Positions 12,483 to 30,800 of a DNA stretch of 64,000 bases are shown piece after piece. The position numbers and the translations under genes were made by a program. Source of the DNA: an uncultured virus (IMG/VR IMGVR_UViG_3300032219_000626) (lineage: Duplodnaviria > Heunggongvirae > Uroviricota > Caudoviricetes); the IMG/VR virus record IMGVR_UViG_3300032219_000626; one strand, 5' to 3'. Numbering within the stretch: the stretch's first letter is position 1; each line of letters begins with the position of its first letter. The notes beneath the pieces are model-generated. The model ran no database searches and was not told where the DNA came from. It saw only the letters and a program-made list of their open reading frames with translations.

Positions 12483-12692
12483 ATGAAGTGTAACAAATGT
12501 AATACAGAAATGACCCCATTTGTATATGGATTTCCATCTAGGGAACTATTTGACTTAGCAGATGCTGGCAAGATAATTCTTGGTGGCTGTGGTGTCAATG
12601 AGTATCAGCCTACCCATTACTGCAATGTATGCCAAGAGCAATACCCATCTAATGAACAAGAGTTTGTTGGATACGACGAACTAGGTATTTAG
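12483..12692 (+). CDS. small Zn-ribbon protein
   Basis: CxxC...YG.P...LGGC...CxxC; SD GGAGG. Confidence 0.65.
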   Translation: MKCNKCNTEMTPFVYGFPSRELFDLADAGKIILGGCGVNEYQPTHYCNVCQEQYPSNEQEFVGYDELGI

Positions 12693-12739
12693 ATGTCCTA
12701 GGGTATCGCTATAATAGAGATACAAACAAAGGAGACACA

Positions 12740-13036
12740 ATGATTAAATTTGAAAATGGAATGCTCGTGCTAGATAGCACAGCCACAAAAGAAGATGTAG
12801 ATGCAGTCAATGAATTTGCAAATCATCACAGAGACATGGCTATTGATTTAGTTAAACAGCGATTGCTCAATGCTTGGGCTGCCTATGGTAAGCAAGATGG
12901 GGCAGAGTATATGTGGTCAATGAATGAGATTGTTGACATAGTTACTGGTAGGTTAGACGGAAGACACCCTGTATTCTACGACTCAGAATACAATGGTGAA
13001 ATTCCAGAAGGTGCAATCCTTCTAGAGACTAACTAG
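12740..13036 (+). CDS. hypothetical protein, paralog of 13964-14176
   Basis: Shared N-terminus MIKFENGMLVL; ATGTC-N12-TATAAT promoter at 12693-12715. Confidence 0.7.
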   Translation: MIKFENGMLVLDSTATKEDVDAVNEFANHHRDMAIDLVKQRLLNAWAAYGKQDGAEYMWSMNEIVDIVTGRLDGRHPVFYDSEYNGEIPEGAILLETN

Positions 13037-13244
13037 CCTACGCTTCTGAGGGTCAAACATCTTAGGGCGTTTCTTAGATGCTTTACCATTGTTGCGGTTA
13101 CTGTTGCGGATAGATGCTTTTTTGGCTGCCATAGTAAAATTATAGCACAAAAGCTCGGCGGTAAAATAGAGGAACAAATGCTTGACAAGCAAGCAAGTAA
13201 CCCTTATAATAGATATACAAGGTCCATTAAACGAGAGAGAACGA

Positions 13245-13742
13245 ATGCAAACCTTTTTACCTTATAAAGACTTCGACAAGTCTGCACAAGCCCTAGACAG
13301 TAAGCGACTTAACAAACAGATTCTAGAGTGCTACCAAATTCTTAATGTATTGTCTAACAAAGACCCACGTGCTGGATGGCGTAACCACCCTGCTGTAAAG
13401 ATGTGGCGTGGACACGAGAACTTCCTGTGGGACTACACTATGGCTATGGTTCGTGAGGCAGATGTTCGTGGTATTAAGACTGACAAGAACATGAGCAATC
13501 TTATTGACCTTATTAACACTTACGGTATTGACTGGGGATTTGACATTCCTGCCTGGTATGAGAATGACATTACCATGAAGCGTCTTACCACCACACACAA
13601 AGCAAACCTATATAAGAAAGACCCAGTATATTACTTTGACTTCTTTAGTTCGGTAGCAGACAGCAATCCTTGTTGCCCTAACCGCAAAGAGCCATGCAAG
13701 TATTACTGGGTAACACACGAGGAGAACAATGAAGCTGCCTAA
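13245..13742 (+). CDS. MSMEG_6728-family / pyrimidine dimer DNA glycosylase (DenV)-like protein
   Basis: MQTFLPY..F..SA..LD.KRL.KQ..E..QIL and GWRNHPAVKMWRGHE; promoter TTGACA-N17-TATAAT at 13182-13210. Confidence 0.8.
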   Translation: MQTFLPYKDFDKSAQALDSKRLNKQILECYQILNVLSNKDPRAGWRNHPAVKMWRGHENFLWDYTMAMVREADVRGIKTDKNMSNLIDLINTYGIDWGFDIPAWYENDITMKRLTTTHKANLYKKDPVYYFDFFSSVADSNPCCPNRKEPCKYYWVTHEENNEAA

Positions 13743-13971
13743 TATATTTAAATGGCGTGTACGGATAGTACAGCAAGGCTATGACCTGGGATGGAAGCAT
13801 GGCTACGAAGCAGGTATGGATGAACAACACAAACAGATTATAGATAAACTTAATCAGCTTATCCATGATGTTGATTGGCTCAAGGAAGACCCATATACTC
13901 GTAAAGAATTGATTGAAGTAATCAAGCAACACAAGACAGATAGAGAACCAGTTGGGTGGACAAATGATTAA
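13729..13971 (+). CDS. hypothetical protein
   Basis: SD GAGGAG; GYxxG pattern. Confidence 0.6.
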   Translation: MKLPNIFKWRVRIVQQGYDLGWKHGYEAGMDEQHKQIIDKLNQLIHDVDWLKEDPYTRKELIEVIKQHKTDREPVGWTND

Positions 13972-14176
13972 ATTTGAGAACGGTATGTTGGTATTGAATA
14001 GCGTATTCTCTAAGGAAGATGTAACGCAGATTAATGAGTTTGCTGACCATGTTCGTAATCAAGAACGTAAACGCATTATTAAGTTACTAGCTGAAGATGG
14101 CAAGAGAAACTATATCTCTGAGGACACATACACATATGTAGTGTCTGTTATCTTGGGTATAGATGAAGAGCTATAA
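13964..14176 (+). CDS. hypothetical protein, paralog of 12740-13036
   Basis: MIKFENGMLVLNS..KEDV..INEFA.H. Confidence 0.65.
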   Translation: MIKFENGMLVLNSVFSKEDVTQINEFADHVRNQERKRIIKLLAEDGKRNYISEDTYTYVVSVILGIDEEL

Positions 14177-14315
14177 ACTTTCGGGGCATCAAAAATGAGC
14201 TTCGTAATCCCTAGTATAAGATATCAGTAGAAGGAATAACACATGGTTTTGTTTGGAATTATATGTCTGATAACATCTGGTTTTATATGGTTTATGTTGT
14301 ATAAAAAGTAGCCAC

Positions 14316-14358
14316 TTATACACACTTATCCACACATTTATCCACAGAATTATACACA
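14316..14358 (+). promoter_or_regulatory. four tandem DnaA boxes
   Basis: TTATACACA 14316, TTATCCACA 14326 and 14338, TTATACACA 14350, in an AT-rich non-coding stretch. Confidence 0.75.
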
Positions 14359-14918
14359 TAAATCTTACTGATATTATTATTGATTGATAGTAAGAGGATA
14401 TGGGGAATAGGATATGGATAACTGAGCCCATATATAGTAGCATCGTAATCCCAAACCACTATATCTAGTAGCCCCCAAACCCCATATATGCATATACCAC
14501 GGACATTTTATACCCCCAAAAACATAGCAAAAATATCCCAAAACATTAAATAAATAAACAAATATATACAAAAGTATATACATTTTGGGGAAAAATATCT
14601 ATATATCGTAATGTTTTTATATAGGGTATTTATACTAGGGGAAATCAAGCATACTTCGTAATACCCTGGCATAGCCAGCCACTACGTGGGGGTAGTTAAA
14701 CTATACCTGATACGTATATATACTATACTAGGGATAAACACAATAAACTTTCAGCGATTTTTTGAAATGGGTTCTTAATCTTTTTTTATCCTTAATAAAA
14801 CTTTCAGGGATTTGGGGAAATTATCGTAATATCGTAATCAATTTGTTATATTTATATACTTGACAAATGGGATAGGGTGTGGTACCCCCAAGCCTACCCC
14901 GAAGGATAGGTCTGTAGG

Positions 14919-15191
14919 CTAGTCCTCTTCTAGGTCTAGGTCTTCCAGCATCTCTTTTAGGTCTTCGAAACCTGTATCTTCTAAGGCTACCAAGCCTAGC
15001 AACATTTCCCAAGTATCACTAATAAAGTTATCTGCCTCTGGCGTTGTCTTTACAATGCCTTTGCTGATAACATAGGCTAGTGGGAAACCGATGTCTGCAT
15101 ACTGAAAGAACTCTGCGAAGTAACCTTCGTCACGATAGTCCATCCATAGTTGGGATAGTATCTCTGCTTGTGTTTCTATTGGTGTGTTCAT
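14919..15191 (-). CDS. acidic hypothetical protein (leaderless)
   Basis: Box promoter 15198-15222, then N6-ATG. Confidence 0.7.
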   Translation of the reverse strand: MNTPIETQAEILSQLWMDYRDEGYFAEFFQYADIGFPLAYVISKGIVKTTPEADNFISDTWEMLLGLVALEDTGFEDLKEMLEDLDLEED

Positions 15192-15391
15192 ACTTCTATT
15201 ATACCCTGACCCTTCGACATTTTTTCTTGTTCTGCTGTTTCTGTGATTTCTTGTAGTCTGCGATAGACCACATTGGGATTGTCTCTAGCGATTGAAACGC
15301 CAACCATTTCTAGGTCAATCGTTACATCACTAACTAAATGTGCTATCTTAGTCGCTACTTTCTGTTCTGGTGTGATTATCTTTCTACGCAT
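15188..15391 (-). CDS. hypothetical protein
   Basis: SD AGGAG; box promoter 15418-15442. Confidence 0.65.
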   Translation of the reverse strand: MRRKIITPEQKVATKIAHLVSDVTIDLEMVGVSIARDNPNVVYRRLQEITETAEQEKMSKGQGIIEV

Positions 15392-15456
15392 ACTGCTCCT
15401 ATTTAGTTATCTATTCGATTATACCTCATACCCCAGACATTATGGGGAAGTTGTTT

Positions 15457-15532
15457 GGGGGACTAGGACAAGAAAGGAAAAGAATCCCAGTCCCCCTGTA
15501 GAGCCATGTCCAACCCCTTAGACACTCTCTAC
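15457..15532 (-). ncRNA. two-hairpin candidate sRNA with anti-SD loop
   Basis: GGGGGACUGGGA/UCCUAGUCCCCC stem with loop UUCUUUUCCUUUCUUG; G-U pairs only on the minus strand. Confidence 0.5.
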
Positions 15533-15563
15533 TATGGTAAGGAGTAAACTCAGCCTACCAATT

Positions 15564-15893
15564 CTAGTACATCACTACCAAATCTAATACATCCTTTGGC
15601 TCTACCGTTTCGGCTGAGGGTAGTGATAGCAATGCTTGCCTAAGACGTGGTGGAGCCTTCTCTAGGAAACCTTCCAGGGTATCCGTCCAGTCCATACCGT
15701 AGTCGTTCTCTGGATACTGGCTACGAAGATAGCGTGTCTCTGCAAAGTTTGTATCGATAAACCAGTTGCTATAGGTAACGTCGCTAAGACCATTGTCCAT
15801 GGTCCATAGCACAGGGTTGATACGCAATGTATCTGAGTATACATTGTCATCTTCCTCTACGAAGTAGATGTTTAGGTCCCAGTCTTTAATCAT
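15564..15893 (-). CDS. hypothetical protein
   Basis: Likely start MIKDWDL. Confidence 0.6.
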   Translation of the reverse strand: MIKDWDLNIYFVEEDDNVYSDTLRINPVLWTMDNGLSDVTYSNWFIDTNFAETRYLRSQYPENDYGMDWTDTLEGFLEKAPPRLRQALLSLPSAETVEPKDVLDLVVMY

Positions 15894-16077
15894 CGTAGAA
15901 GCCTTCCTGAACATCCAAAGCAGTTCGCTGTAGAAGTTCATCAAGATAGTTAGCCACTGAACCTTCTACGTCACTGATGATAGTTTTCCATACTTCATCA
16001 GACAGTGGTAGGTCTACTAAGTCTGCGTCAAGAAAACTCTCAAAGTTCTCCTTGTCAATCTGCCATTCTTCAAACAT
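15886..16077 (-). CDS. acidic hypothetical protein
   Basis: Likely start MFEEWQ. Confidence 0.55.
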   Translation of the reverse strand: MFEEWQIDKENFESFLDADLVDLPLSDEVWKTIISDVEGSVANYLDELLQRTALDVQEGFYDD

Positions 16078-16471
16078 TCTCGGTTCCATAAATTTCTTCC
16101 ATTTCTTCTCGTGTGTCAATCCAAATAGTGATGTAGCCATTGCCACGGCATTCATCACAATCAATGTTAGCATCACCCTCAGACATACAATCACATTCCT
16201 TGTCAATACTAACAGGGACTTCAATAAAGTCATCCCAAGGCTTCTTGGTAACGTAGTACTGAATACGGTTGACTAGGTGATAGCCAGATACGATATAGGT
16301 TCCTTCGTCGCCATCCATCTCAGTCCAGATAGTGTTGTCTGGTTGTGCTAGTACAAATGCCAGTTCATCACCATAGGTTTCAAAAGAACAACTGGTATCA
16401 CAATCACCAGTTATATGATTAGGGATAGGCTTGAACGTGTCATACCATTCGTCAGTGGTAAGTCTAAGCAA
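16070..16471 (-). CDS. acidic hypothetical protein with C-terminal Cys cluster
   Basis: FETYGDEL..V...IWT..DGD..YIVSGYH.VNR..Y; CxC...CxxCxG. Confidence 0.7.
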   Translation of the reverse strand: MLRLTTDEWYDTFKPIPNHITGDCDTSCSFETYGDELAFVLAQPDNTIWTEMDGDEGTYIVSGYHLVNRIQYYVTKKPWDDFIEVPVSIDKECDCMSEGDANIDCDECRGNGYITIWIDTREEMEEIYGTENV

Positions 16472-16763
16472 TGCGTTGCCTCAATTCTTCTAGGGTTGCT
16501 TGGTCATACTCATTATACATCTCACCTATGACATCTAATACCATCGCAATGCCAGCCTCCCATGAATCGCAGGTAGCACAGTATTCACAGTTACCCTCAC
16601 AGATTTTGCAGAAGGGTGTGCAATCAAATGAACCTTGATGTGCAGGACAAACTAACTTAGTATGATTACACATAAGGTCATCCATAACTACTTGACAAAT
16701 AGAACAAACAGTCTCATTATCATTGAGCATATCAACTGTCCAGTTATGTTCGTGATTACTCAT
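16464..16763 (-). CDS. Cys-rich hypothetical protein
   Basis: Multiple CxxC motifs. Confidence 0.6.
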   Translation of the reverse strand: MSNHEHNWTVDMLNDNETVCSICQVVMDDLMCNHTKLVCPAHQGSFDCTPFCKICEGNCEYCATCDSWEAGIAMVLDVIGEMYNEYDQATLEELRQRIA

Positions 16764-16965
16764 CTTCTTCCTCCAACTCGTCGTCGGTGTGAACATTCTC
16801 AATGTCTACCGAATACCAATCGTAGGTAACACCCTCTTCGCTAGAGTAGGGCTTCCACTCTTCTGCTAGTTCTAGTGCTTTTTGCTCTGCTTCTTCATAA
16901 CTATCTGCTTCTACAGTATAGTCTGTATCAAAGTGAAATGATACTGCAACATTGAAGTTTGCCAT
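16756..16965 (-). CDS. acidic small protein with VEADSxEEA motif
   Basis: TTGACT-N17-TAAAAT promoter upstream (about 16991-17019). Confidence 0.7.
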   Translation of the reverse strand: MANFNVAVSFHFDTDYTVEADSYEEAEQKALELAEEWKPYSSEEGVTYDWYSVDIENVHTDDELEEEDE

Positions 16966-17002
16966 TATGGTTCTCTTTCTCTAGGTTACTATTTTATCAG
17001 GT

Positions 17003-17533
17003 TTAGAAGTGAAAGTCAACAGGCACAAGGTAAATGTTTTCACCTTCGTTGTTGTCTATTTTACTAAGAATGTGGGTAGCGTTACTGCTGTCGGTAATGA
17101 AATCATAGAACCAACTGTCGTGAGACCACGAACCCATTTGAAATCTTAGTAGAGCGTTCAATGCGTAGAAATGGTAGTCATAGGACATAACCCCACCATA
17201 GTTATCTAGTTTGTCAATGACTTTGGTTTCCTTTACTTCCGCAAGGTATTCGTTGTAGTCAGTAACACGCTGTTGAATACACTCGTCAATCTTTGCTCGG
17301 AAAGCATTAGGGTCTTCCTTGTATGAGATAACCATGTTGCTCTTGGTCTTGTAGCCTTCCATAAGGTCGTCACCCTCAGCGGTATTCCAACGACCACCAC
17401 CAACTATGAACCAGTCATACCAAGAGATATAGTTCTCTCCGTCACCCATTGCCGCCTCTAAGTGCGAGGTAGCGTTGAATACCGCTTCATCTTTATCATT
17501 TGCTTCTACAGCAATCCAATGTAATGTATGCAT
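17003..17533 (-). CDS. hypothetical protein
   Basis: WYDWFIVGGGRW and VPVDFHF motifs; SD AAGGAG. Confidence 0.75.
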   Translation of the reverse strand: MHTLHWIAVEANDKDEAVFNATSHLEAAMGDGENYISWYDWFIVGGGRWNTAEGDDLMEGYKTKSNMVISYKEDPNAFRAKIDECIQQRVTDYNEYLAEVKETKVIDKLDNYGGVMSYDYHFYALNALLRFQMGSWSHDSWFYDFITDSSNATHILSKIDNNEGENIYLVPVDFHF

Positions 17534-17854
17534 ATTTCTCCTTCTTGTTGTAGTTACAGTATACGATACCCCTCAGACATTTATTCAGGGGATTTTGGGG
17601 AAACATCGTAATGAATCGTAATAGAGAAATAATATATATAAAGATATATAGAGATGGGGTGCCCAGCTCCCTACTGCTCAACCAAATAAATAAATGTCAA
17701 CACAACCATGACAGCAACTAAATAGTCAGCAATCACTTCTTAGGACAAACTTTATGACCTATACGCTTGTAGTAGGACTTCCATACTTGACCACATTCCT
17801 TACACTGGTAGTAGTCGTAGTAGTCGTCACCTTTGATTTTCCACATTGGTTTCA

Positions 17855-18031
17855 TTAGTTCTCCCCATCATCTTCTTCTACCTCAAAATCCCAAACAGCA
17901 TCAGTCTGATAGTCCTTGAAGTCTGAAGCAATCCAATCGTTGAGGGTAGCCAAAGCCTGTCCTTCATCGTCAGCAATAACAGGAACCTGATACTCAAAGG
18001 TTGAGACAGCAGTAATCAAAAATCTAGGCAT
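17855..18031 (-). CDS. 58-aa acidic protein
   Basis: Hand-translated MPRFLITAVSTFEYQVPVIADDEGQA... Confidence 0.6.
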   Translation of the reverse strand: MPRFLITAVSTFEYQVPVIADDEGQALATLNDWIASDFKDYQTDAVWDFEVEEDDGEN

Positions 18032-18318
18032 CTAGTTCTCTTTCTTTGCTGGGGTTATTAGATAGGCTCCGCATTCGCAGAAGTCACAAATCCAAGTGTG
18101 TTCGTGTTCAGTCATTGTCTTGTCCTATTCCAAAGATGTGGTCTAAGTCGTGAGTGTGATAAGAGTTGCCTACTCGCTCTGGTCTACCGCAAGTTTTGCA
18201 GATGTTATCGTTACTCATTATTCTCCAAACTCTGCGGTGGTGTCTTCAACTGCCTCGATAACTTCAGCCCAAGTCTCATCGTCCCAAGTATCTAGACGGT
18301 AAATAGTATAAGTATCCA

Positions 18319-18510
18319 TTAGTCTTCCTCGTCTTCCTCATCTTCTTCTTCTAGGGCTTCTACTTCGATAGAGTAAACTCCGTCATAGACAATAGGGCTG
18401 TCGTAGGTTTCACCCCAACTAGTCCAAGCAAGTTGCTCTGCGTGTTCCTCGCTGTCTGCTTCAATCTCACCAGAAAACTCAATCATCATTTCTACTTGGT
18501 ATCTAGGCAT
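18319..18510 (-). CDS. very acidic small protein with IEADSEEHA motif
   Basis: Box promoter and SD AAAGGAAGG. Confidence 0.75.
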   Translation of the reverse strand: MPRYQVEMMIEFSGEIEADSEEHAEQLAWTSWGETYDSPIVYDGVYSIEVEALEEEDEEDEED

Positions 18511-18662
18511 TTGCCTTCCTTTCTTGTTGTTACTATTTTACATCTACCCCCAGACATTTATTTGGGGAAATCGTAAGGCTATCGTAAATTGATTATGGCT
18601 ACCTGGGGGCACCGCCCAGCTCCCCCACCCACTAGGGGTAGGAGAGCCAGAAGAAGAATGGC

Positions 18663-19682
18663 TTACGCCATTACAACCTGCTGGACAATCTTCATTAGGC
18701 GGTTCTTCTCTGCGTTGATTACAGGGTCAAAGCCAGAAGCCGAAGCATAGATGTTTTCGTTGTCTCCGCCTCGTGCTGAACGATACCAATCCAAACGCTC
18801 GGTCAATGCGTTGTATGCTCCCCAAGCAGTTCCAGCAATCGTGTCGTTGAACTGACCACGATAGATTGACTGAAGTAGGTCTACCTTGCCATTGTATTTC
18901 TTGAATGAACCCTTAGCGTCTTTTTCTGGCTCAGGGTAGGCAAGAGCAATGATTTCCATAAACTGATTGTCGGTAACAGTCTTGCTAATCATCTCGTTAG
19001 CCATTTTGCTAAACTCGTCAATGTAAGAGTTAGCCAAGCCAAGAGCCTCACGAGCAACCGCAATCTTACCCTCGGCAGTTGAGGTGTGACGGATTTTGAA
19101 TGACTGCTTGGCTGCTTTCTTGCCCTTGAATGACGAGAGAGCGAGGTTGAGAGTGTTAGCACAAACTACACGAACAGGGGTAATGCTTGCCTGAATAGCA
19201 ATGCTTCCGTCGTGGCTAGTGTTGATTAGCAGATAGTTATCAATCTTGTCTGCAATCCCCTTTGGGTCAAGAGTGATTGAGTTAGACAGAGCGATAGAGC
19301 CAAACACCTGACGACCACCCTTGATTGAACCTGCGGTTTCCCAACGACCACCGCCGTCTAGTAGGTTATCACCAAACGAAAATAGGTCTTCGTTCTGCAA
19401 TGGAACATAACGCTCACCAACAACGCCTAGAATGTCGTTCTGGTCTTTGTCGAATGGGTTTGTGCGAGTAACAAAAGAGTAAGACTTGTCGCTTGCAAAA
19501 CCCTCTGGGACTGCTACATCTTCTAGACGAACATTCCATTTGTCTAGGTGAGCCAACTCTAGCATTTGCTGAGTGTTTACTTCTTCTTGGAAGACTGTTC
19601 CAAGATTGTGCCACGCTGGTTGGCGTAGGCTGGCGAATGTTGCTTCGCCTGTTACTTCATCTATTTCTAGTTCGTGAGCCAT
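18663..19682 (-). CDS. DUF932 / TIGR03299-family phage protein
   Basis: MAHEL..AWHNLG, LGVVGERY.PLQN, WETAGSIKGGRQVF, TSHDGS, TPVRVVCANTL, IRHT, GTAWGAYNA.TE. Confidence 0.88.
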   Translation of the reverse strand: MAHELEIDEVTGEATFASLRQPAWHNLGTVFQEEVNTQQMLELAHLDKWNVRLEDVAVPEGFASDKSYSFVTRTNPFDKDQNDILGVVGERYVPLQNEDLFSFGDNLLDGGGRWETAGSIKGGRQVFGSIALSNSITLDPKGIADKIDNYLLINTSHDGSIAIQASITPVRVVCANTLNLALSSFKGKKAAKQSFKIRHTSTAEGKIAVAREALGLANSYIDEFSKMANEMISKTVTDNQFMEIIALAYPEPEKDAKGSFKKYNGKVDLLQSIYRGQFNDTIAGTAWGAYNALTERLDWYRSARGGDNENIYASASGFDPVINAEKNRLMKIVQQVVMA

Positions 19683-19828
19683 AGGGGTCACCTTTCATTA
19701 GTGGTTGATTGCTGATAGTTCTATTATACAGACACCCACAGACATTGTAAATAGTTTGGGCAAAAATTCTGGAGGTTTTTTAATGGTATCGTAAACAAGC
19801 CTGGCAGGAGGGGGGCACCCCCAAAGGG

Positions 19829-19853
19829 GAGCCTTTTTTGTCATGCTCAGGAC
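19829..19853 (-). ncRNA. 3'-UTR pseudoknot, copy 2
   Basis: GTC-CT-GAGC-AT-GAC-AAAAAAG-GCTC. Confidence 0.6.
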
Positions 19854-19865
19854 GTTCATAGCCCC

Positions 19866-20342
19866 CTATGAAACTACATTCCAATCTGTAACATCAAAGT
19901 CACACTCTAGAACTTCGCTGTCTTCTTCGTAGGTATCAAAGCGAACGCTGTCGCAATAGGTATTGTCTGCTACTTCGTCAGGGTCTTTACCGAATGGAAC
20001 TTCCAACTCAACAGAAACAACAATGTCGTAACGAATGTTTACACGCTTGGTCAGGATTACATTGTCGAAGATGTCTGCAATACGCTGGGCGTTCTCAATG
20101 CTGATTTCTTCATCAGTAATCAACTCTTTGAGTAGGTCAGTAAGAGCGTATTCTGCCTTACGATACTTGTCGCTCCACTTGGTTAGTTGAGCAGAAACAA
20201 ACTCATTGTTTTGTTTTAGTTTGTCTTTCTCTGCGGTAGCAATAGATAGGTCAGCCTCTAATCTAGCAACCTTCTCATTTAGAGCAGCAAGAACAGGGTG
20301 AGTGTTAGGGGTAAAGGTTGGTTCGTTGTTGATTTCTTCCAT
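19866..20342 (-). CDS. coiled-coil hypothetical protein
   Basis: Start corrected to MEEINNE; the track ATG is part of the promoter box. Confidence 0.7.
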   Translation of the reverse strand: MEEINNEPTFTPNTHPVLAALNEKVARLEADLSIATAEKDKLKQNNEFVSAQLTKWSDKYRKAEYALTDLLKELITDEEISIENAQRIADIFDNVILTKRVNIRYDIVVSVELEVPFGKDPDEVADNTYCDSVRFDTYEEDSEVLECDFDVTDWNVVS

Positions 20343-20393
20343 TGGGGCTTCTTTCTCTTGGTGTGGTTCTATTATAGGGGTAGGGTCAGACAT

Positions 20394-21446: not shown

Positions 21447-21474
21447 TGGGCAGTTTTACTTGATACCCAGCAAG
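21447..21474 (-). ncRNA. 3'-UTR pseudoknot, copy 4
   Basis: CTTG-CT-GGGT-AT-CAAG-TA-AAACT-GCCC. Confidence 0.7.
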
Positions 21475-21491
21475 AAGCCTAGGGGCTTACC

Positions 21492-21647: not shown

Positions 21648-21918
21648 AATGTCTTTCTACCTATTTCTAGGATTTGCTTCGTTATTTGATACCAACGGAT
21701 TTGTTGATACCTCTATTATAGCAAGGGGGTCAGACATTTATCAACTCTGCTTGTAACAGAATGTAACATCTTTAGTTTTTAGTGGGGAGTGAGTTTTGTC
21801 TTTCCCTTGCTACAAGTTCTATTATACGGATACCCTCGGACATTTATTTTGGGAAATGGGAAATGATTCACGTAATCGTAAATCGGCATACCCAGGGGGG
21901 TGCCCCTTTCGGGGTAGC

Positions 21919-22485
21919 CTACTGCCTATACAAAAAGTTCTTAGCAGATAGCCAAGCCCTATAAAGTATTTCGTCTTCTCTGCCAGAGATGTCCCACTCC
22001 AATAGTCTGCCTATTGTGTGTGAGTTGCGATTTTCCAAGTCTGCTAAGACTAAGGCGTATGCCTGTTCTAGTTCTTCGTTCATTAGTCTGTTAGTCCTTC
22101 CATTATAGATACTGCCATTACTAGTCCTTCGTAGTAGCCATTAGAGTATTCGTCTTCCACTACTGCCTCTGCTAGTCGCATTTCGTCAATAAGAATAAGT
22201 AGTCTGTCTTGCATTAGTATCCTGCTTTCTCTAGAATGGATAGTAGTTGGTCTACTTGCTCTGGGCTTAGTTCTTCGATTGCCTGTTCGTTGATTACATT
22301 ATCAAACATCATAGGAACTCGAAAGGGTCTAGGTCGCCAAAGTAGTCTTCGAACTCGGCAAGGTTACCAGTAGCAAGAACTTCCAGTATGTCGTTATAGA
22401 CAGAGCCAGACTCACCACGATTGGTTGCGTCAAGGCGGTCATAGATGTCGGTTGCAATGTATTCGTTTTCGTTTTCGTTGTTCAT
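21919..22485 (-). CDS. four translationally coupled micro-ORFs (approx. 22309-22485, 22214-22309, 22083-22214, 21919-22083)
   Basis: Leaderless first gene; TAATG/TGATG overlaps; acidic products. Confidence 0.6.
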
Positions 22486-22692
22486 AGGTTTATTATACAT
22501 TGGGGGTAGGACATTTATTATCGTAAACGTAATCGAAGTAGGAGCTTTGAGGGTGCCCCCCTTTCGGGGTGGGTTATAGACCTAACACACTTTCTAAGTC
22601 TTCTAAGGCTTCTTCGGCGGTGATAAAGTTCAAGTGATAGCCAGCAAAAATTTCTTCGATTAGGTCTGTTTGGTCATTAGTTAGACTAGCCA

Positions 22693-23175
22693 TTACTCTC
22701 CCTCGTGGTCAAAATATTTGTTTGAGCATTCTACACACATACCAAGTTCTTCTTGGTGAACAATAGCAACTACAGGCTCTCCACACTTTTCGCAAGGCTT
22801 GTAGTGGCTAAAGTGAAATAGCCCTGTTCCTGTTGGTTCATCGTGACTCCAGCGTCTAGCGGTTAGAATGTTGTTCTCAAGATACCATTCAATACGGAAG
22901 TCAGCGTCTAATGCTAATGCTCCGTGTAGTTTATCCATAGTTGTCCACTTGAAACCTGCCTGACGCATCCAGCCCATTCCTGAGCCGTCAATAAGGATGT
23001 GGTCGTCTTCGTCAATGTTGTTAGACTTTTGCCATTCGCCTAGTAGTGTGAACACATCTTCTTTCTGCCATTCGTAGCATTCGCCATAGCAGTTGTCTTC
23101 CATTGGCGTTCCGTCTTCGTTTGTGCATTGGCAGTCAGTAGTTACGCTTGCGGTTAGTTTTTCGATAGTAGTCAT
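22693..23175 (-). CDS. hypothetical protein with C-terminal Zn finger
   Basis: GMGW, SHDEPTG, CxxC...CxxC. Confidence 0.7.
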   Translation of the reverse strand: MTTIEKLTASVTTDCQCTNEDGTPMEDNCYGECYEWQKEDVFTLLGEWQKSNNIDEDDHILIDGSGMGWMRQAGFKWTTMDKLHGALALDADFRIEWYLENNILTARRWSHDEPTGTGLFHFSHYKPCEKCGEPVVAIVHQEELGMCVECSNKYFDHEGE

Positions 23176-23219
23176 TCTTCTCTTTCTTGTTGATTACAGT
23201 TTATCAGTAGCCACAGACA

Positions 23220-23357
23220 TTATTCGGCGGTAAGGTCAGCAAGAGAAACATCCACTGGACCATTCTCTGTATAGATAACATACCATTCGTTGCTTAGGTT
23301 ATTGAACATAGACTTACGCAATACGCCTAACTCTAGTAGTTTTTCGATACTTACCAT
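23220..23357 (-). CDS. 45-aa protein flanked by near-identical promoter repeats
   Basis: Hand-translated MVSIEKLLELGVLRKSMFNNLSNEWY... Confidence 0.6.
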   Translation of the reverse strand: MVSIEKLLELGVLRKSMFNNLSNEWYVIYTENGPVDVSLADLTAE

Positions 23358-23401
23358 TATTCTCCCTCTTGTTGATTATAGTTTATCAGTAGCCACAGAC
23401 A

Positions 23402-23524
23402 TTATAGGTTGCAGTCACTGGCTAGGATATCGTCACAGTCAAAACACTTTTGCATATTGCAGTATTCGTTACCGCATTCACAAGGAACCCAGTCCATATT
23501 AAACACATTGCATTCACTACTCAT
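23402..23524 (-). CDS. 40-aa Cys-rich protein
   Basis: MSSECNVFNMDWVPCECGNEYCNMQKCFDCDDILASDCNL. Confidence 0.55.
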   Translation of the reverse strand: MSSECNVFNMDWVPCECGNEYCNMQKCFDCDDILASDCNL

Positions 23525-23694
23525 TAGTAACTCTCCTTGATAGCCTTTAGTTTGTTTGCTTGACGGCTACCCTTGCGGTTTTCAGGGGTAACGATTAGGT
23601 GCTTGTTTAGCATTAGTGACTCAAACAACGCCTTAGAGTGAGCCTTGCGTGTTGCTTCATTGACCTTGTTTAGTGGCTTCTTGTTCTTCTTCAT
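23524..23694 (-). CDS. basic small protein (leaderless)
   Basis: TATACT-N7-ATG; MKKNKKPLNK...RKGSRQANK. Confidence 0.65.
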   Translation of the reverse strand: MKKNKKPLNKVNEATRKAHSKALFESLMLNKHLIVTPENRKGSRQANKLKAIKESY

Positions 23695-23795
23695 ACTGAT
23701 AAGTATAGCAAAACCCACAGACATTTATTTGGGAGATTTTTAATGTGTTACGTAAAGGGGGTGGGGCTAGGGGGGCACCCCCGAAGGGGTAGGAA

Positions 23796-24317
23796 TTACT
23801 CCCCACTCCCTCTAACTACAATCCAAATTAGGGCTTGCATTGCTCTAGGGGTCATGCCGTGTTTGGTAGCCACAGCAGTTACAGCGTCTGCCATTTCTTT
23901 ATACTGCGACTGCGTAGGTGTCTTTTTCTCAATGCCTAACGCTCGCAACATCCAAACATCAATCACGACTGCATTTTCGTTACCAGCGATAGCCTTAGCA
24001 AAGTTGTTAGTCTTGAGACCTTTAAGAGCGTCGAATCCTAGCGTGAGTGCTTTCTCTGCCATGCGGATGTTATTGCCTAGCACTCCCTTTAGTTCGTGAC
24101 CGAGTGAAAACTTTACTGCATTAGTAACATTACGAGACCAACGCTCACGAGGGCTAAAAGCAGATACAACAGTTGCTCCAATCTCAAGGGTAGTGTTTAG
24201 GTTAGTTGCAACTTCACGAGCAACGGTCTCAGCGTCAAGATACCATTTAGTGGCTTGCTCAACCTGACCAAAGGTTGCTTTTTTGGCAATGTCTGAATAG
24301 ATTTTGGTGTATGACAT
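23796..24317 (-). CDS. hypothetical protein, possibly HhH DNA-glycosylase-like
   Basis: WY, SAFSPR..W..N, GLKTNNF...VVIDVWM.RA, QA.IW. Confidence 0.5.
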   Translation of the reverse strand: MSYTKIYSDIAKKATFGQVEQATKWYLDAETVAREVATNLNTTLEIGATVVSAFSPRERWSRNVTNAVKFSLGHELKGVLGNNIRMAEKALTLGFDALKGLKTNNFAKAIAGNENAVVIDVWMLRALGIEKKTPTQSQYKEMADAVTAVATKHGMTPRAMQALIWIVVRGSGE

Positions 24318-24559
24318 GGGGCTGTCTCCTTCTTGTTGATAGTCTTATTATACATTTAGGGTGGGACATTTATTTATCGTAACGTAAAGGAGCTTTGCCA
24401 GGAGGGCGGTGCCCCCAGCACACCCTAGAAGGGTGGCTGAAGTTCCTCGTTCTCTCTCCAAAGTTTATTGACTAGCCTAAGCAGCACGAGGTTTATTGCT
24501 GTAAGAACCACAACACCAAAACCAACAATCCAAAAGAGAAAAGCAATCCAATCATTCAT

Positions 24560-24730
24560 TTATTCTCCCCAACAAGCGTCTACAAACTTTTCGGTAATAA
24601 AGCGGTCGTTGTCCTCACGAAACATAACCGCAAAACTTTCCACTAGGCTGTCGAAAGTTGTGTCGTCAATGTCCTGTAGGTGTCCTTTTAGGATTTCTGC
24701 GGTAGTCACATAGTCTTTGCGTGTCATCAT
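24560..24730 (-). CDS. small hypothetical protein
   Basis: MTRKDYV..A.IL...F..DN.RF..EKF..AC. Confidence 0.6.
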   Translation of the reverse strand: MMTRKDYVTTAEILKGHLQDIDDTTFDSLVESFAVMFREDNDRFITEKFVDACWGE

Positions 24731-24948
24731 TAGTTTTACTCTCTTTCCGATACTTCGATTAGTTTTAGTCGTTCTTTGTCTGATAGCATAGCCCAAGCCC
24801 AACCAAAAGCATAGGCGTAGGCTTCCGAGTTGCTAAAGTCTTTGTTAGCCATTAGGTTTTTGATTACTTCGCTGTTTCTGAACATTAGTTGTTCTTCCAT
24901 TAGTTTTACCTTTCGTTGTGATTACAGTTTACCAATACCCACAGACAT

Positions 24949-25122
24949 TTATTCTGTAGGCTCAAGCCACTCAACGCCATTTACCCAAAAGCGAGCAATA
25001 CGACCTTTGTAGTATGCGTCAATAAGCCAATCTAGTTGAACCTCGTTTTCTAGTGGAGCCTCAATCTCAAGGGTAGAACCGTTGTCCATTTCGACTACAT
25101 AAATGTTCATTGTGTTTCGCAT
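24949..25122 (-). CDS. 57-aa hypothetical protein
   Basis: Hand-translated; bounded by two box promoters; stop abuts ATGTC. Confidence 0.6.
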   Translation of the reverse strand: MRNTMNIYVVEMDNGSTLEIEAPLENEVQLDWLIDAYYKGRIARFWVNGVEWLEPTE

Positions 25123-25241
25123 AGTTTTCCTTTCGTTGTAGTTACAGTTTACCGCATACCACAGACATTTATTCGGGTGCTTTTTAATACACTACGTAAA
25201 GTGTTATCAAACCGTTATTCGGGTGCCCCCAGCTCCCTGCC

Positions 25242-25400
25242 TCAGTCGAAGCAGAAGGGAGCGTCTAGGAACTCCGCATAAGCCTCTTGCAAGGCTTGCT
25301 GGCGTTCAGCCCTGTCTTGGGCTGCCAACTCCTCGGGAGAATACTCGTCCTCCTCAAAGTAGTTCTCAGCGATGTCGTCCCAGCCAAAATCTTCGTCCAT
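25242..25400 (-). CDS. 52-aa highly acidic protein
   Basis: MDEDFGWDDIAENYFEEDEYSPEELAAQ... Confidence 0.6.
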   Translation of the reverse strand: MDEDFGWDDIAENYFEEDEYSPEELAAQDRAERQQALQEAYAEFLDAPFCFD

Positions 25401-25669
25401 TAGTTATCCTTTCGTTACCACCATTGTAACAACCACCTCGGACATTTTGGGGGATAATCTTAAAACTATTTAATAACGTTTAGGTAACGAATCGGGGTGC
25501 CCCCCTGGCGTGTCGCTACCTGCTAGGCAGGGCGAACGCAGAGGTTGCAGACAAACATACTCTTAGCAATCTGCCTAACTAGGTAGGCATCTGCAGGGCG
25601 GTTGCAAAGTTCGCAAAGGTTCTCCTTGCGTTCCTGTGGGGTTAGTTTGATGCTGGGCATAGGCTCTCC

Positions 25670-25915
25670 TTAGTTAGCGTTTGGGTAGTTTGGTGATAGG
25701 TCAAGGGTGTTGTAGGTTGCTTCATTCTTGTTCAGCAGGGTCAGGCGATAGACAATGCCAGAGTTAGAGAAACGGCGAGCAACCTCAAAGTGTTCGCATA
25801 GTCCAAAGTTTTTGATGTTCTTGCCAGCAGCGTAGGCGTTAGCAAAGGTGTCATAGGTCTGGATGGTCTGGCTCACGAAGAGCAGGTTTGGGCTAAGGGT
25901 CAAGGGGAACTCCAA
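25670..25915 (-). CDS. hypothetical protein (start uncertain)
   Basis: Downstream of box promoter 25935-25959. Confidence 0.55.
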   Translation of the reverse strand: MEFPLTLSPNLLFVSQTIQTYDTFANAYAAGKNIKNFGLCEHFEVARRFSNSGIVYRLTLLNKNEATYNTLDLSPNYPNAN

Positions 25916-26039
25916 TCAATCAACTTACGAAGTAAGTCTAACAGCCACCTCAGACATTTATTATTATTTTGAGAGACATTTCGGGACATTTTTAATCGGT
26001 AACGTAAACTGTTACCAAATCGTTATCGGGGTGCCCCCC

Positions 26040-26069
26040 TGTGGATAACTTTTAGCTACCTGTGGATAA
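26040..26069 (-). promoter_or_regulatory. two DnaA boxes
   Basis: TGTGGATAA at 26040 and 26061. Confidence 0.7.
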
Positions 26070-26591
26070 CTATTTCTTTTGTGTAAGCGGAAGCAATTAG
26101 GGCAATAGCCTCGTCATACTCTTCCCAAGTGTCAAACTTTAGAATAATCATTAGTTAGCCTTTCTTTTAGCGTCAGGGTATTCCTTGAGGAATGAAGTCA
26201 CATCTCGCCAGTGGATAGCCGAAACAACTAGGCTTCCATTTAGGGAGTATTCAAATAGAGTGTATCCGTTTGGCATTAGTTGCCCTTTCTTGTTTGTAGT
26301 TACAGGTTACCATTAGGGGCAGACATTTATTTGCTAGGCTCACCATTACGGATTATTTGCTAGGCTCTTGCTACCCCTAAAACTTATTTGCCCATTGCTC
26401 TGGCAACCAACTGCTTACCCTCATCGCTAACCACAGCGAACAACGAACCAGCGACATAGACATAGGCGGTATTAGCGTCATAGCCATAGCGTTCCATTGC
26501 GTATTCAACAAGGTCAGTTAGAGTTGGAGTTTCAGTCATTTCATTTCTCATTTCTTTTGGTTGATTACAGTTTAGGGGATACCACGGACAT

Positions 26592-26735
26592 TTATTTATT
26601 TAGTTTGTCAAACTGAAACTGAAGCCAGTGAACCTCGTCATAGTCTTCAGGCGTGTCAATGCCTAGGGCGATTAGTTTGCCTAGGTTTTCAATGGCTAGG
26701 TCTAGGGCTAGTTTTGCGTCAAGTGCTTTCTTCAT
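26592..26735 (-). CDS. 47-aa protein, paralog of 27683-27820
   Basis: AKLALDLAIENLGKLIALGIDTPEDYDEVHWL. Confidence 0.7.
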   Translation of the reverse strand: MKKALDAKLALDLAIENLGKLIALGIDTPEDYDEVHWLQFQFDKLNK

Positions 26736-27075
26736 TTATTCCTTCTTTCTATCTACCTATAAGGTATCACGAACCACGGACATTTATTTACCAAAACAGG
26801 GGGTTTTTTGGCTTGTTACTTAAACCGTTACCAAAACGTTATTTTGGGGTGCCCCACGCAGTCGGGCGTGTCGCCAGGGTAGAGCTAGAACGGTGGCTTA
26901 TTCCGTTCCAACTCTTCCTCTAGCGATTTGATTACCATATTTTTGTACCAAGCATAGCAAGCCCAAGCAAGAGATAGGATAACAATCCATGATAGCGTTG
27001 GAGACATTTTTTCCTTTACTGATTGAATAGAACGATAAGAGCGATTAGGATTAGACTACCAAACACCACAGACAT

Positions 27076-27234
27076 TTAGACGCTACCGCCTAGTTTCTGG
27101 ATGTGACGAACAAGGGCTAGCATGAAGTCTAGTTCTGCGTGTGATAAGTAGTCAAGGTTCTCGGCTTCACGAACGAGTGAGTTGAGTTTTAGTTTTGCTT
27201 GTTTTAGGGTCAAGTCTGCTAGTGCTGTTTCCAT
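27076..27234 (-). CDS. 52-aa hypothetical protein
   Basis: METALADLTLKQAKLKL...; stop abuts promoter box. Confidence 0.55.
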   Translation of the reverse strand: METALADLTLKQAKLKLNSLVREAENLDYLSHAELDFMLALVRHIQKLGGSV

Positions 27235-27266
27235 TTTACTGCCTTTCGATTAGTTTGAGTTTAGCA

Positions 27267-27524
27267 TTAGGGGCGGACATTGTTTTTAGGGCAGTAGTCA
27301 ATCTGTCTTGACTTTTTGTAGCCAACAAAACCATTAGGGCTAACCTTTTGTTCTAAGATTAGTTCGTGTTCCCAACCTTTACCGAACAACGAGTTTGTTA
27401 CACGCTCTCCACAGTTGGCACACTCACCAAACCATAGTTGGTTGTTCTGGCGGTAGCCATCGGCTGGGTTTAGAACCTTGAAGCCGTTGCCGATACCTTG
27501 AGTTCTTGTTTCTTGAATAGTCAT
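27267..27524 (-). CDS. hypothetical Zn-ribbon protein
   Basis: CANCGE...W.H...YCP. Confidence 0.65.
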   Translation of the reverse strand: MTIQETRTQGIGNGFKVLNPADGYRQNNQLWFGECANCGERVTNSLFGKGWEHELILEQKVSPNGFVGYKKSRQIDYCPKNNVRP

Positions 27525-27682
27525 TTATTTCTCATTTCTTTTAGTTACTTACAGTTTAGTGTATGCCACAGACATTTATTATTCAAAACAGGGGCTTTTT
27601 TTCGTTCTTACGTAAAACGTTACCAAATCGTTATTTTTGGGTGCCCCCACGCTGTCGGGCGTGTCGCCCTGGTGGGGTATTG

Positions 27683-27820
27683 CTAAGAACGCTTTAGTTC
27701 TTGCTCTAGCCAATACACTTCGTCATAGTCTGCATCAGTGTCTAGCCCTAGAGCGATTAGTTTCTCTAGGTTTTCTTTTGCTAGGTCGAAAGCGATTTTT
27801 GCGTTTAGTTCTTTGTTCAT
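27683..27820 (-). CDS. 45-aa protein, paralog of 26592-26735
   Basis: AKIAFDLAKENLEKLIALGLDTDADYDEVYWL. Confidence 0.7.
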   Translation of the reverse strand: MNKELNAKIAFDLAKENLEKLIALGLDTDADYDEVYWLEQELKRS

Positions 27821-28003
27821 TTCATTTTCCATTTCTTTTTGTTACTTTGCTTATTCGCTAGGCTCACCGATTACTCGTTTATTTGCTAGGCTTACAAATC
27901 TTTTCTGTTTTTCTTTATACCTATAGTATAAACACCCCCACGGACATTTATTATCTCAAACACACCTTTTTTCGGGGGTTTTTGTAACAGAATTGTAACG
28001 AAG

Positions 28004-28024
28004 TTATCCACAGAGTTATCCACA
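28004..28024 (+). promoter_or_regulatory. two DnaA boxes
   Basis: TTATCCACA-GAG-TTATCCACA. Confidence 0.75.
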
Positions 28025-28250
28025 GGCGGTGCCCCCACGCTGTCGGGCGTGTCGCAGGGTAGCGACTAGACTACTAAGTAGTCAAGCCAGTCATACTCCG
28101 CAACCGCATCCTTTACAGTCATGATACCCTTGTACTCGTTACAAGTAGGGCAAGAGTGTGGAGCGAGGTTGAAGGTTCTCTCACAAAATACACAAACAAA
28201 CATTAGTTATCCTTTCTTGATACTTTTAGTGTAGCAGTTGCTACAGACAT

Positions 28251-28490
28251 TTATTCTACGTGAGCAGAGCAGACATAGGCTACATCCTGCTCCTCAACGA
28301 TACGCTTGCTTGACTTGGAGTAGCGAGGTCTAGCATAGGTCTCAATGACGGTGACAGTCTCGCCACAGTTGCAGCAAGGGCAACCGTCATCGGCTACGCT
28401 AACTTGGCATCCTGCAAAGTATTGTGCTTCATCGGCGGTAGCAGGGCGAGTAGCAATCAGGGTCCAACTGTAGTCAAACATTTCGTTCAT
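28251..28490 (-). CDS. Cys-rich hypothetical protein
   Basis: Start corrected downstream of the promoter. Confidence 0.6.
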   Translation of the reverse strand: MNEMFDYSWTLIATRPATADEAQYFAGCQVSVADDGCPCCNCGETVTVIETYARPRYSKSSKRIVEEQDVAYVCSAHVE

Positions 28491-28893
28491 TTCGTTCTCC
28501 GTTCTTGTTGTTATCAGTCTATACCCTAGCACAGACATTTATTACCAAACACGCCAAATAAATGTAACGATTTGGGGGAAAATTGTTATCGAACTTAACG
28601 GCGTGTCGATTTGACAAAAGCCCAGATTTTGGGGCACCGCCACGCTGTCGGGCGTGTCGCCCTGGTAGCCCTAGGGGATAAGCCCTACGACATACAGCAT
28701 TAGGCTTAGGCTACCTAGTATCAGTAGACCAGCGAGGGTAGCCATTATGACAATGGTCAAGTCATCCATTAGGTTACGCATTAGTTACACCATAGGCAAT
28801 CGATGTCGTCACAAGGGTTTTCTGCTGAGTAGTCTTCGTTTTCGTTCATTTCTATCTCCTTCTTGATTACAGTTTACTTGATAGGTCAGACAT

Positions 28894-29118
28894 TTAGTTT
28901 GAGTGGTGAGGGCAGTCTGACCATTTTAGGCATTGCTCGCCCTTTTTGGTGATACCTTTACACTGGTTTGCTAGGCGGTATGCAACTGAACGCTTGTTAG
29001 CGATACGCTTGCTAACTGACTCAAGTGCTAGAGAGATAGGTAGAGCGATTGCATACAGTAGAGCGAAGCCTACGAATACTACTGAGTAACTTGCGATTAG
29101 AATTTCGATGCTGGTCAT
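28894..29118 (-). CDS. membrane-anchored protein with CKGITKKG..C motif
   Basis: First gene of the island; SD AAGGAG. Confidence 0.65.
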   Translation of the reverse strand: MTSIEILIASYSVVFVGFALLYAIALPISLALESVSKRIANKRSVAYRLANQCKGITKKGEQCLKWSDCPHHSN

Positions 29119-29521
29119 TTGTTGCTCCTTCTTTGTTATCTAAAGTCTATACCATAGGGCAGACATTTTGGCTCATTTAGACAAACATTTTTGCAATGTT
29201 ACCAATTTGTTATAAAGGTACGTAGGGGTAGTGTGCTCACTAAAAATAGGTGTACGTATGGGTGTAGGTCCGTATCATTCATCTTTACAAAATATTCAGA
29301 TTTTTGCCAATTTGAAAATTTTTTCAGATTTCGCTGGTATCAAAATTTTTTGGGGGTATTACAGAACTACGTCTGCTCCAAGCCATATAGCAATAGCTGC
29401 ATATAGACAAATAAAACCTATTCCTGATACGATAAGAGCAAATACACCAGCCCAGTCTGTTTTCTTTTTCATATGTTTCCTAAAATGTTTGGGGGTACAC
29501 AACAGGCAAAGCCTGTCTTGA

Positions 29522-30799: not shown

Positions 30800-30800
30800 T

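Follow-up and report, generated by a model that had tools for sequence, protein, structure and literature searches.

The closest described counterparts of the promoter element reported here are the PafBC-dependent promoters. According to the available excerpts of PMC8635444, their in vivo motif is tGTCgg(N10)tA(N3)T, whose 5' part (the '-26 element') spans -23 to -28 and which lacks a -35; the GTC triplet is contacted by R46 and R50 of PafB, and PafBC is placed between the DNA and region 4 of sigma-A, an arrangement likened there to sigma appropriation of the T4 MotA type. PafBC is activated by single-stranded DNA (ssDNA) bound to its WYL domains and joins only RNA polymerase that is already on such a promoter, as stated in the excerpts of PMC11804915. 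The only known role of PafBC and its sigma adaptation is in the response of bacteria to DNA damage, as studied in mycobacteria, and the literature that links PafBC or RecA-NDp with phage, judged from titles and abstract openings, reports no phage promoters of this type. Here we describe an array of sites of the form TGTC-N12-TAnnnT in a stretch of DNA from an uncultured virus of the Caudoviricetes (IMG/VR record IMGVR_UViG_3300032219_000626; the whole stretch of 64,000 nucleotides (nt) is hereafter the window). The sites appear to be a real promoter family with the defining anatomy of host PafBC-type damage promoters, and host sigma-A RNA polymerase together with host PafBC probably drives the gene island that carries them (probability roughly 0.6).

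Over the whole 64-kb window, TGTC-N12-TAnnnT has 46 matches, compared with a mean of 11.22 (standard deviation (s.d.) 3.42, largest 22) in 100 dinucleotide-preserving shuffles, none of which reaches 46. Thirty-three of them fall within 15198-29165 on the minus strand, and a single array-type copy is located on the plus strand at 12694-12715. A preliminary description of this DNA, made from the letters alone, had listed 29 minus-strand copies and one plus-strand copy at an exact 12-nt spacing; the array is real, is found at the same coordinates, and comprises 33 + 1 sites. The spacing is as strict as had been claimed, since the minus strand of 14000-29300 holds 33 sites at N12 and 0-3 at each of the other spacings from N8 to N17, and the plus strand of this interval holds no match at N12. 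About one or two chance matches are expected within the island, and the site at 18391, which has T at -1, reads TGTCTA and lies within an open reading frame (ORF), is probably one of them. TGTC is invariant in the 33 + 1 sites by construction of the pattern, and flanks outside the pattern are conserved too. The remaining spacer is varied, in line with the diversity noted before, so that only two short blocks and the distance between them are conserved.

The aligned island sites read aATAAA-TGTC-Y-G-(T/A)-(GG or CC)-...-TAnAnT (Y, pyrimidine). A occupies position -1 in 32 of the 33, position 5 is T or C in 31, and position 6 is G in 27. The -10 hexamer is TATAAT in 11 sites and TAAACT in eight, and an extended -10 (TGn before the hexamer) is present in 13. 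A scan of 12000-31000 for TTGACA-N16-18-TATAAT gave 49 matches against 39.1 (s.d. 6.1), which is not an enrichment. Since this generic -35/-10 scan catches, besides the plus-strand site, no more than two of the 33 on the minus strand (their first hexamers lie at 21744 and 19751), the canonical -35 is absent, as the preliminary description had it. The sites thus have the spacing of the published PafBC motif and its lack of a -35 (excerpts of PMC8635444), and the geometry proposed for them stands. The type of -10 depends on position: TAAACT and TAGACT dominate from 29165 down to 24926, and TATAAT dominates from 24368 down to 15198. These two positional blocks may reflect two temporal or strength classes. 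The TAAACT/TAGACT block (24926-29165) is the promoter-distal third of the island, with TATAAT in the rest, and the arrays of two related phages described below, G005 and G006, show a similar gradient of -10 types. Terminator-like hairpins in 12000-31000 are not enriched (16 vs 14.5±3.9).

The nearest named relatives of the virus are Streptomyces BE-type phages and a few Rhodococcus phages, whose protease and capsid genes are about 70% identical to its own at the nucleotide level; hundreds of closer relatives are present in IMG/VR. The 39-kb Planktophila phages of PMC10202952 are unrelated to the window. One-strand, clustered arrays of ATGTC-N12-TAnnnT occur in nine of ten larger related records. 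Counted on the dominant strand against a reversed-pattern control on the same strand, the matches number 35 vs 4 in G211, 23 vs 4 in G213, 22 vs 3 in G003, 20 vs 2 in G005, 19 vs 3 in G006, 17 vs 2 in G002, 12 vs 1 in G212, 11 vs 4 in G215 and 8 vs 2 in G214; the tenth record, G004, has no such array. Since the pattern is not enriched in Streptomyces phage Gilson (9 matches forward and 6 in reverse, control 6 and 13), the array is not a trait of the whole BE-type group. G001 was discarded as a carrier because it is a 20-kb fragment with one chance match. Searching viral contigs with AAATGTCYGTGG-N7-TAnnnT mostly yielded isolated chance matches and helped only in finding G211 and G212. G211 (92.9 kb, rated complete) aligns collinearly with the window in blocks of about 73-93% nucleotide identity (80-92% in most of them), and its ends map to about 14,000 of the window.

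The core and the spacing are constant among these relatives, and position 5 varies: G005 and G006 have G, G003 has A (TGTCAGACCC), and G212 and G213 have a mixture of G, T, A and C within one array. The sites of G005 and G006 have the form ATGTCGGTGG-N8-TAnnnT, which is the exact TGTCGGTGG form (the array reads aaTGTCGGtGGgt), and they fit the published mycobacterial PafBC motif in sequence as well as geometry. In about half of the sites of G005 and G006, TTGACA or TTGATA stands at 17-19 nt, one to three bases upstream of TGTC. The G006 array runs into the 8.5-kb direct terminal repeat of that phage. Both G211 and G006 encode WhiB, DnaB, primase, DnaE and RecA. A small Cys-rich DUF7455 protein is encoded near WhiB in both of these complete relatives (G211, L336:19284-19502; G006, L084:6382-6615), and G006 (L083-L089) also carries a class Ib ribonucleotide reductase (NrdEFI), RecA, several 2OG-Fe(II) oxygenases and a carbamoyltransferase.

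NrdE of G006 is 75-79% identical to that of freshwater Actinomycetota metagenome-assembled genomes (MAGs) of 1.0-1.2 Mb, including records titled Rhodoluna sp. (G008) and Candidatus Nanopelagicus sp. (G009). Since WhiB is characteristic of phages of actinobacteria and NrdE finds its best matches in freshwater Actinomycetota, the phage clade appears to be actinobacterial, and streamlined freshwater Actinomycetota are its candidate hosts. The best contig match to G006 NrdE (85%) is L097, a 23-kb contig binned in a Beijerinckiaceae MAG; since its identity is higher than that of any actinobacterial genome, L097 is probably a phage contig binned by mistake. An ESM Atlas search with the phage GroES returned viral GroES clusters only and no host clue.

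The pafB/pafC genes that a host-borne switch presupposes are present as tandem pairs in the candidate hosts: all five genomes encode two adjacent WYL ORFs of about 310-350 aa, and all 101 genomes sampled from the order of G009, which we infer to be Nanopelagicales, contain WYL ORFs. In the G009 pair, one member matches PafB (7p5x_AY, E = 3.6e-29), with an identical RMFERDK stretch holding R46/R50, and the other matches PafC (7p5x_AX, E = 7e-21; residues 350-652 of the fused 6sj9 chain).

The candidate hosts also carry TGTC-N12-TAnnnT immediately upstream of LexA boxes. The composite pattern, defined as TGTC-N12-TAnnnT followed by CGAAC-N4-GTTCG within 20 nt, is found in 184 genomes out of 201 from the order of G009, compared with none for the reversed control and 6/201 for an N13 variant. 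A site of this kind, cTTGACAaaaTGTCGG(T/G)GG..., precedes the LysM (chiZ-like) gene divergent from lexA in G007, G008 and G011. Composite sites precede a DUF6504 gene in G010 and G040 and recA in G040, with near-matches at recA of G009 and G010 (AACCCT replacing TAnnnT), and the dnaE2-like polymerase gene is preceded by a site in G066 and G210 (TGTCTGTGG/TGTCTGAGG). Whole-genome counts of TGTCNG-N10-TAnnnT in five host genomes are not above the reversed control; the TGTC element is rare in the hosts, and only its composite with the SOS box is informative there. Most host sites (L338-L367, L199, L201-L207) have TTGC or TTGACA at a distance of 3-5 nt before TGTC and a LexA box directly after. 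This three-part damage promoter, conserved in the 184 genomes, merits a description of its own, as the mycobacterial PafBC promoters are reported without a -35 in the excerpts of PMC8635444.

To compare the two sets directly, 33 distinct host sites were aligned with the 33 phage island sites. Position 6 is G at a frequency of 0.91 in the host and 0.82 in the phage, the G/C frequencies at position 8 are 0.70/0.21 and 0.70/0.27, and those at position 9 are 0.61/0.39 and 0.67/0.30, respectively. From the shares of G and C at positions 8-9, each set contains a GG class and a CC class, so that both types of site occur in host and phage alike. The CC-class sites of the phage (TGTCCCACCC, TGTCCTACCC) resemble the host recA sites (TGTCCTAGCC/TGTCCCAGCC). 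When a host matrix restricted to positions 5-10 is applied to the window, the phage array sites score +2.0 bits and the 13 other window matches -5.1 (Mann-Whitney p = 1.2e-5).

A reader of these sites was then sought among the phage genes. WYL domains scored above the cut-off in none of the ten phage records. Pfam searches of 69 window ORFs, 117 of the 140 G006 ORFs and 37 G211 ORFs detected WhiB, but no sigma factor, WYL, MotA or RNA polymerase. Host PafB and PafC queries (tblastn, phmmer) against the window, G211, G005 and G006, the latter three being rated 100% complete, gave nothing better than E = 2.9, and by Pfam, tblastn and phmmer together no AsiA, MotA, WYL, sigma or PafB/C-like gene was found in these four. 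The phage-encoded, MotA-like mimic that had been offered as an alternative is thus left without a corresponding gene, although small proteins of no known family remain. The LexA box CGAAC-N4-GTTCG has no occurrence in the window at up to one mismatch.

Taken with the host regulator, these features suggest how the array would work. Each site would pair a -10 of sigma-A type (TAnnnT, often TATAAT or extended TGn) with TGTC at about -28 to -25, and no -35. On infection, host RNA polymerase with sigma-A would bind the phage promoters, and host PafBC, switched on by ssDNA that the infection itself may produce, would insert between the DNA and sigma region 4 ('sigma adaptation'). PafB would then read the GTC triplet, and the whole island of small host-takeover genes would fire. 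The phage seems to copy only the activator half of the host damage promoters and to omit the LexA operator, and because of this omission SOS repression would not reach its promoters. A basal activity independent of PafBC may also exist at sites with a consensus TATAAT or a TGn. Since the first genes cannot wait for a phage product and no phage reader was found, host sigma-A with host PafBC is the most economical explanation. A wider proposal, for which we see about even odds, is that a widespread clade of phages of 90-125 kb, infecting streamlined freshwater Actinomycetota, runs its whole takeover programme from 10-35 host PafBC promoters lacking LexA sites, and would be the first virus to exploit sigma adaptation by a WYL activator.

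Several observations weigh against host PafBC as the driver. The wiring of an early island to the host damage switch, as put forward in the preliminary description, is supported by the motif, the relatives and the hosts at the level of sequence comparison. The 11 window sites with a perfect TATAAT and the 13 with TGn might need no activator, and the TTGACA/TTGATA sites of G005 and G006 could work with sigma-A alone. Since PafBC is inactive without ssDNA, a lytic phage that used it for its first transcripts would need a source of ssDNA. At position 5, 31 of the 33 phage sites (94%) have Y, whereas 85% of the host sites have A or G and the classical consensus has R (purine); the T of host dnaE2-like sites and the C of host recA sites show that a Y is accepted there. 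The strongly conserved phage AATAAA just before TGTC has no counterpart in the host sites, which carry a TTGC-type, -35-like element at this place. The matrix comparison with the host motif, envisaged from the outset, separates the array at positions 5-10 and fails to do so when all unconstrained columns are used (p = 0.16). The composite is present in just 9 of 81 genomes of the family of G008, and recA of G008 and G011 has no strict site within 400 nt. The link to the host consists of one gene of a relative (G006 NrdE), WhiB and base composition, and the bacteria named are therefore candidate hosts of the window's phage.

The two sigma-A features among these points lead to a different account, in our view unlikely, in which the sites are sigma-A promoters that work without PafBC through their consensus or extended -10, and the AATAAATGTCYG block is the site of a later phage-made regulator, be it a repressor, WhiB or a small-protein activator. 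TATAAT in 11/33 and TGn in 13/33 sites agree with this account, as do the -35-distance TTGACA/TTGATA in about half of the sites of relatives, the A-rich block before TGTC and the Y at position 5, both taken as phage-specific and absent from host sites; the clade also encodes WhiB, a binder of sigma-A region 4, and many uncharacterised small proteins. What it leaves unexplained is the coincidence of the core, the 12-nt spacing and positions 6-9 with the host damage promoters and with the published PafBC motif. WhiB is moreover the only DNA-binding family detected in the phage records scanned, and the G211 WhiB, its sequence read by eye, has no AT-hook motif. An activator box that replaces the -35 would equally suit a phage-encoded or virion-delivered PafB mimic that reads TGTC and adapts sigma-A in the manner of T4 MotA/AsiA, with host PafBC uninvolved. 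Most island proteins belong to no known family, and a given phage tends to keep to one choice at position 5 (Y for the window, G for G005, A for G003), which could mean co-evolution with a phage factor. We nevertheless consider such a mimic improbable, for position 5 is a mixture of all four letters within one array in G213 and G212, the window, G211, G005 and G006 hold no WYL, PafB/C-like, MotA or sigma homologue, and the first-transcribed genes cannot need a protein encoded by themselves or by later genes unless it is injected.

About 33 repeats on one strand of a 15-kb stretch could also be packaging, replication or recombination signals, or recently duplicated DNA, rather than promoters. 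This seems hardly credible, given that conservation is limited to two short blocks and their spacing, with differing spacers, that the second block is a -10 hexamer, that the blocks sit 22-67 nt before a Shine-Dalgarno sequence and start (24/33) or 5-7 nt before a start codon (4/33), and that the same arrangement precedes host genes. Control of the island by host sigma-A polymerase and host PafBC remains the reading that we prefer.

The island itself (14189-29165) consists of small minus-strand genes, mostly of 40-180 aa, and is transcribed leftward from about 29.2 kb. Nearly all of these genes have no Pfam family; DUF932 and DUF7178 are the only significant ones, besides a few weak, below-threshold matches. 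The genes are presumably early, judging from their layout. When start-codon and Shine-Dalgarno criteria were applied to the minus-strand matches, 24 of 33 sites were found to have a Shine-Dalgarno-led ORF 22-67 nt past the hexamer, four have a start codon 5-7 nt past it and no Shine-Dalgarno sequence, as leaderless mRNAs do, for which they are candidates, and five have neither.

All sites in this and the next paragraph are on the minus strand and, save for the match at 18370-18391, are promoter-like; they are described from right to left. The first, TGTCTGCCCT..TAGACT at 29144-29165, is followed by ORF 28894-29118, with the start 25 nt past the -10, and for TGTCTGACCT..TAAACT at 28871-28892 no downstream ORF of at least 25 aa was called. 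ORF 28251-28490 lies downstream of TGTCTGTGCT..TAGACT (28516-28537), and ORF 28066-28203 downstream of TGTCTGTAGC..TACACT (28228-28249), which has a TG extended -10. No ORF was called by the criteria used after TGTCCGTGGG..TATACT (27925-27946). The next site, TGTCTGTGGC..TAAACT at 27553-27574, stands 28 nt before ORF 27267-27524, which has a weak Shine-Dalgarno sequence. Further left, TGTCCGCCCC..TAAACT (27258-27279) serves ORF 27076-27234, TGTCTGTGGT..TAGTCT (27053-27074) serves ORF 26885-27007, and the two copies of TGTCCGTGGT, with TACCTT at 26761-26782 and TAAACT at 26569-26590, have ORFs 26592-26735 and 26384-26551 downstream, respectively. ORF 26151-26276 follows TGTCTGCCCC..TAACCT (26304-26325), ORF 25670-25903 follows TGTCTGAGGT..TAGACT (25935-25956), and ORF 25242-25400 follows TGTCCGAGGT..TACAAT (25423-25444). 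The TAAACT/TAGACT block closes with TGTCTGTGGT..TAAACT at 25146-25167 (ORF 24949-25122) and TGTCTGTGGG..TAAACT at 24926-24947 (ORF 24736-24900).

The TATAAT block begins with TGTCCCACCC..TATAAT at 24347-24368, a CC-class site like those of host recA, upstream of ORF 23796-24317 (DUF7178). At TGTCTGTGGG..TATACT (23702-23723), an ATG at 23694 lies 7 nt past the -10 without a Shine-Dalgarno sequence, which makes this site a leaderless candidate. Two further copies of TGTCTGTGGC..TAAACT, at 23380-23401 and 23198-23219, precede ORFs 23220-23357 and 22693-23175. Another leaderless candidate is TGTCCTACCC..TATAAT at 22492-22513 (ATG 22485, 6 nt past the -10). No ORF was called directly downstream of TGTCCGAGGG..TATAAT (21821-21842). 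The neighbouring TGTCTGACCC..TATAAT (21715-21736), upstream of ORF 21492-21647, is among the few with a -35-like TTGATA (18-nt spacer). ORF 20883-21320 is served by TGTCCCACCC..TATAAT (21352-21373), ORF 20394-20594 by TGTCCGTGGT..TATAAT (20619-20640), ORF 19866-20342 by the CC-class site TGTCTGACCC..TATAAT (20371-20392), and ORF 18663-19682 (DUF932) by TGTCTGTGGG..TATAAT (19723-19744). ORF 18319-18510, downstream of TGTCTGGGGG..TAAAAT (18535-18556), contains the probable chance match mentioned above, TGTCTATGAC..TACTCT with T at -1 (18370-18391). The copy of TGTCTGAGGG with TATACT (17558-17579) precedes ORF 17003-17533, and TGTCATAGGT..TATAAT (16512-16533), atypical at positions 5-6, precedes ORF 16070-16471. 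A GTG at 16158 lies 5 nt past the -10 of TGTCTGAGGG..TAACAT (16164-16185). The array ends with TGTCTGGGGT..TATAAT at 15418-15439 (ORF 15188-15391) and TGTCGAAGGG..TATAAT at 15198-15219, a leaderless candidate whose ATG at 15191, 6 nt past the -10, opens ORF 14919-15191.

Upstream of many TGTC sites, at a variable distance of 10-25 nt, a run of CCCC(C) is followed by an A-rich stretch (ttCCCCaaa), for example at sites 17579, 18556, 20640 and 21842, and a CCCC-type run is also found upstream in G005 and G006 (CCCCCGAAA). The upstream CCCC could pair with GGGG after TGTCYG at some sites. A hairpin formed in this way was rejected as a general feature, because by eye it fits some sites only and is impossible in CC-class sites.

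On the plus strand, the copy TGTCCTAGGG..TATAAT (12694-12715) is followed by AAGGAG and an ATG at 12740 (98-aa ORF, 12740-13036), after which comes the gene of a DenV-like pyrimidine-dimer glycosylase (13182-13742). A perfect TTGACA-N17-TATAAT (12 of 12) lies at 13182-13210 (+), at the called start of the DenV-like ORF, and the Pfam match of this ORF starts only at residue 22. The true start of the gene is probably further downstream than 13182, and therefore the repair gene may have its own consensus promoter besides the TGTC-type site at 12694. A spot check of the preliminary remark that other genes of the window use ordinary promoters came upon this one perfect site.

The window as a whole has 40% G+C and a structural module of siphovirus type with a 2771-aa tape measure protein. 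Its first part (1-12400) contains a cluster of glycosyltransferases, a methyltransferase, a cytidylyltransferase, a phosphomannomutase-like HAD hydrolase and a Stealth-like protein, together with Hsp20, GroES, thioredoxin, tRNA-Glu and tRNA-Arg genes, and is a large sugar-modification and chaperone module for a phage. In freshwater metatranscriptomes, 6-9% of the sampled words of the island are present in four runs of one study. RNA-library contigs of 180-440 nt were placed on 12000-31000, some identical to the window and some spanning promoters; these contigs may stem from DNA and carry no start or strand information, and hence they are no evidence of transcription.

The same promoter grammar thus occurs in dozens of copies in an island of abundant uncultured freshwater phages and before recA, dnaE2-like and chiZ-like genes of their likely hosts. 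If PafBC control is confirmed, a lytic phage can launch its infection through a stress activator of the host instead of a factor of its own or a plain -35/-10 promoter. This would link infection to ssDNA sensing and ultraviolet stress in surface waters and extend the PafBC regulon to some of the most abundant freshwater bacteria. What the host uses as an alarm for foreign or broken DNA would then serve the phage as its early transcription factor, and the array could also draw PafBC away from host repair genes. Because the sites are short and defined and the assays already exist, the idea is directly testable.

Among known systems, the window sites are most similar to the PafBC-dependent promoters of mycobacteria and other Actinobacteria. 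They share the TGTC core with its GTC triplet placed exactly 12 nt before a sigma-A TAnnnT, the lack of a canonical -35 in the window copies, and the G at position 6 with a following (T)GG tendency, and the relatives G005 and G006 have the full TGTCGGTGG. On the other hand, the known promoters stand singly before repair genes, whereas the window sites form a one-strand array of about 33 copies in a phage of lytic type. They also differ in having Y rather than R at position 5, AATAAA upstream, many consensus TATAAT hexamers and no adjoining LexA box, and their dependence on PafBC is a proposal based on sequence.

The middle promoters of T4, with a MotA box at -30 and a sigma-70 -10, are similar in that an activator box at a fixed distance replaces the -35 and in that many copies lie in a phage gene island. 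In T4, however, the activator and co-activator are encoded by the phage and act on middle genes, whereas no phage factor was found for the window, where the box is that of a host regulator. Phages and prophages can also be wired to the host SOS response via LexA or RecA, through LexA repression or cleavage of a phage repressor, mostly in prophage induction. These share with the window the coupling of phage expression to the DNA-damage state of the host, but the window has no LexA box, and a positive activator is proposed to act on the first genes of an apparently lytic phage. The host-takeover islands of SPO1 and T5 carry many strong early promoters in or near long terminal repeats, with ordinary -35/-10 elements for sigma-A or sigma-70. 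The island of the window resembles them as a dense one-strand array of small genes, each with its own promoter, and in G006 the array likewise enters a terminal repeat. Unlike the promoters of SPO1 and T5, those of the window have no -35 and carry a -26 element in its stead.

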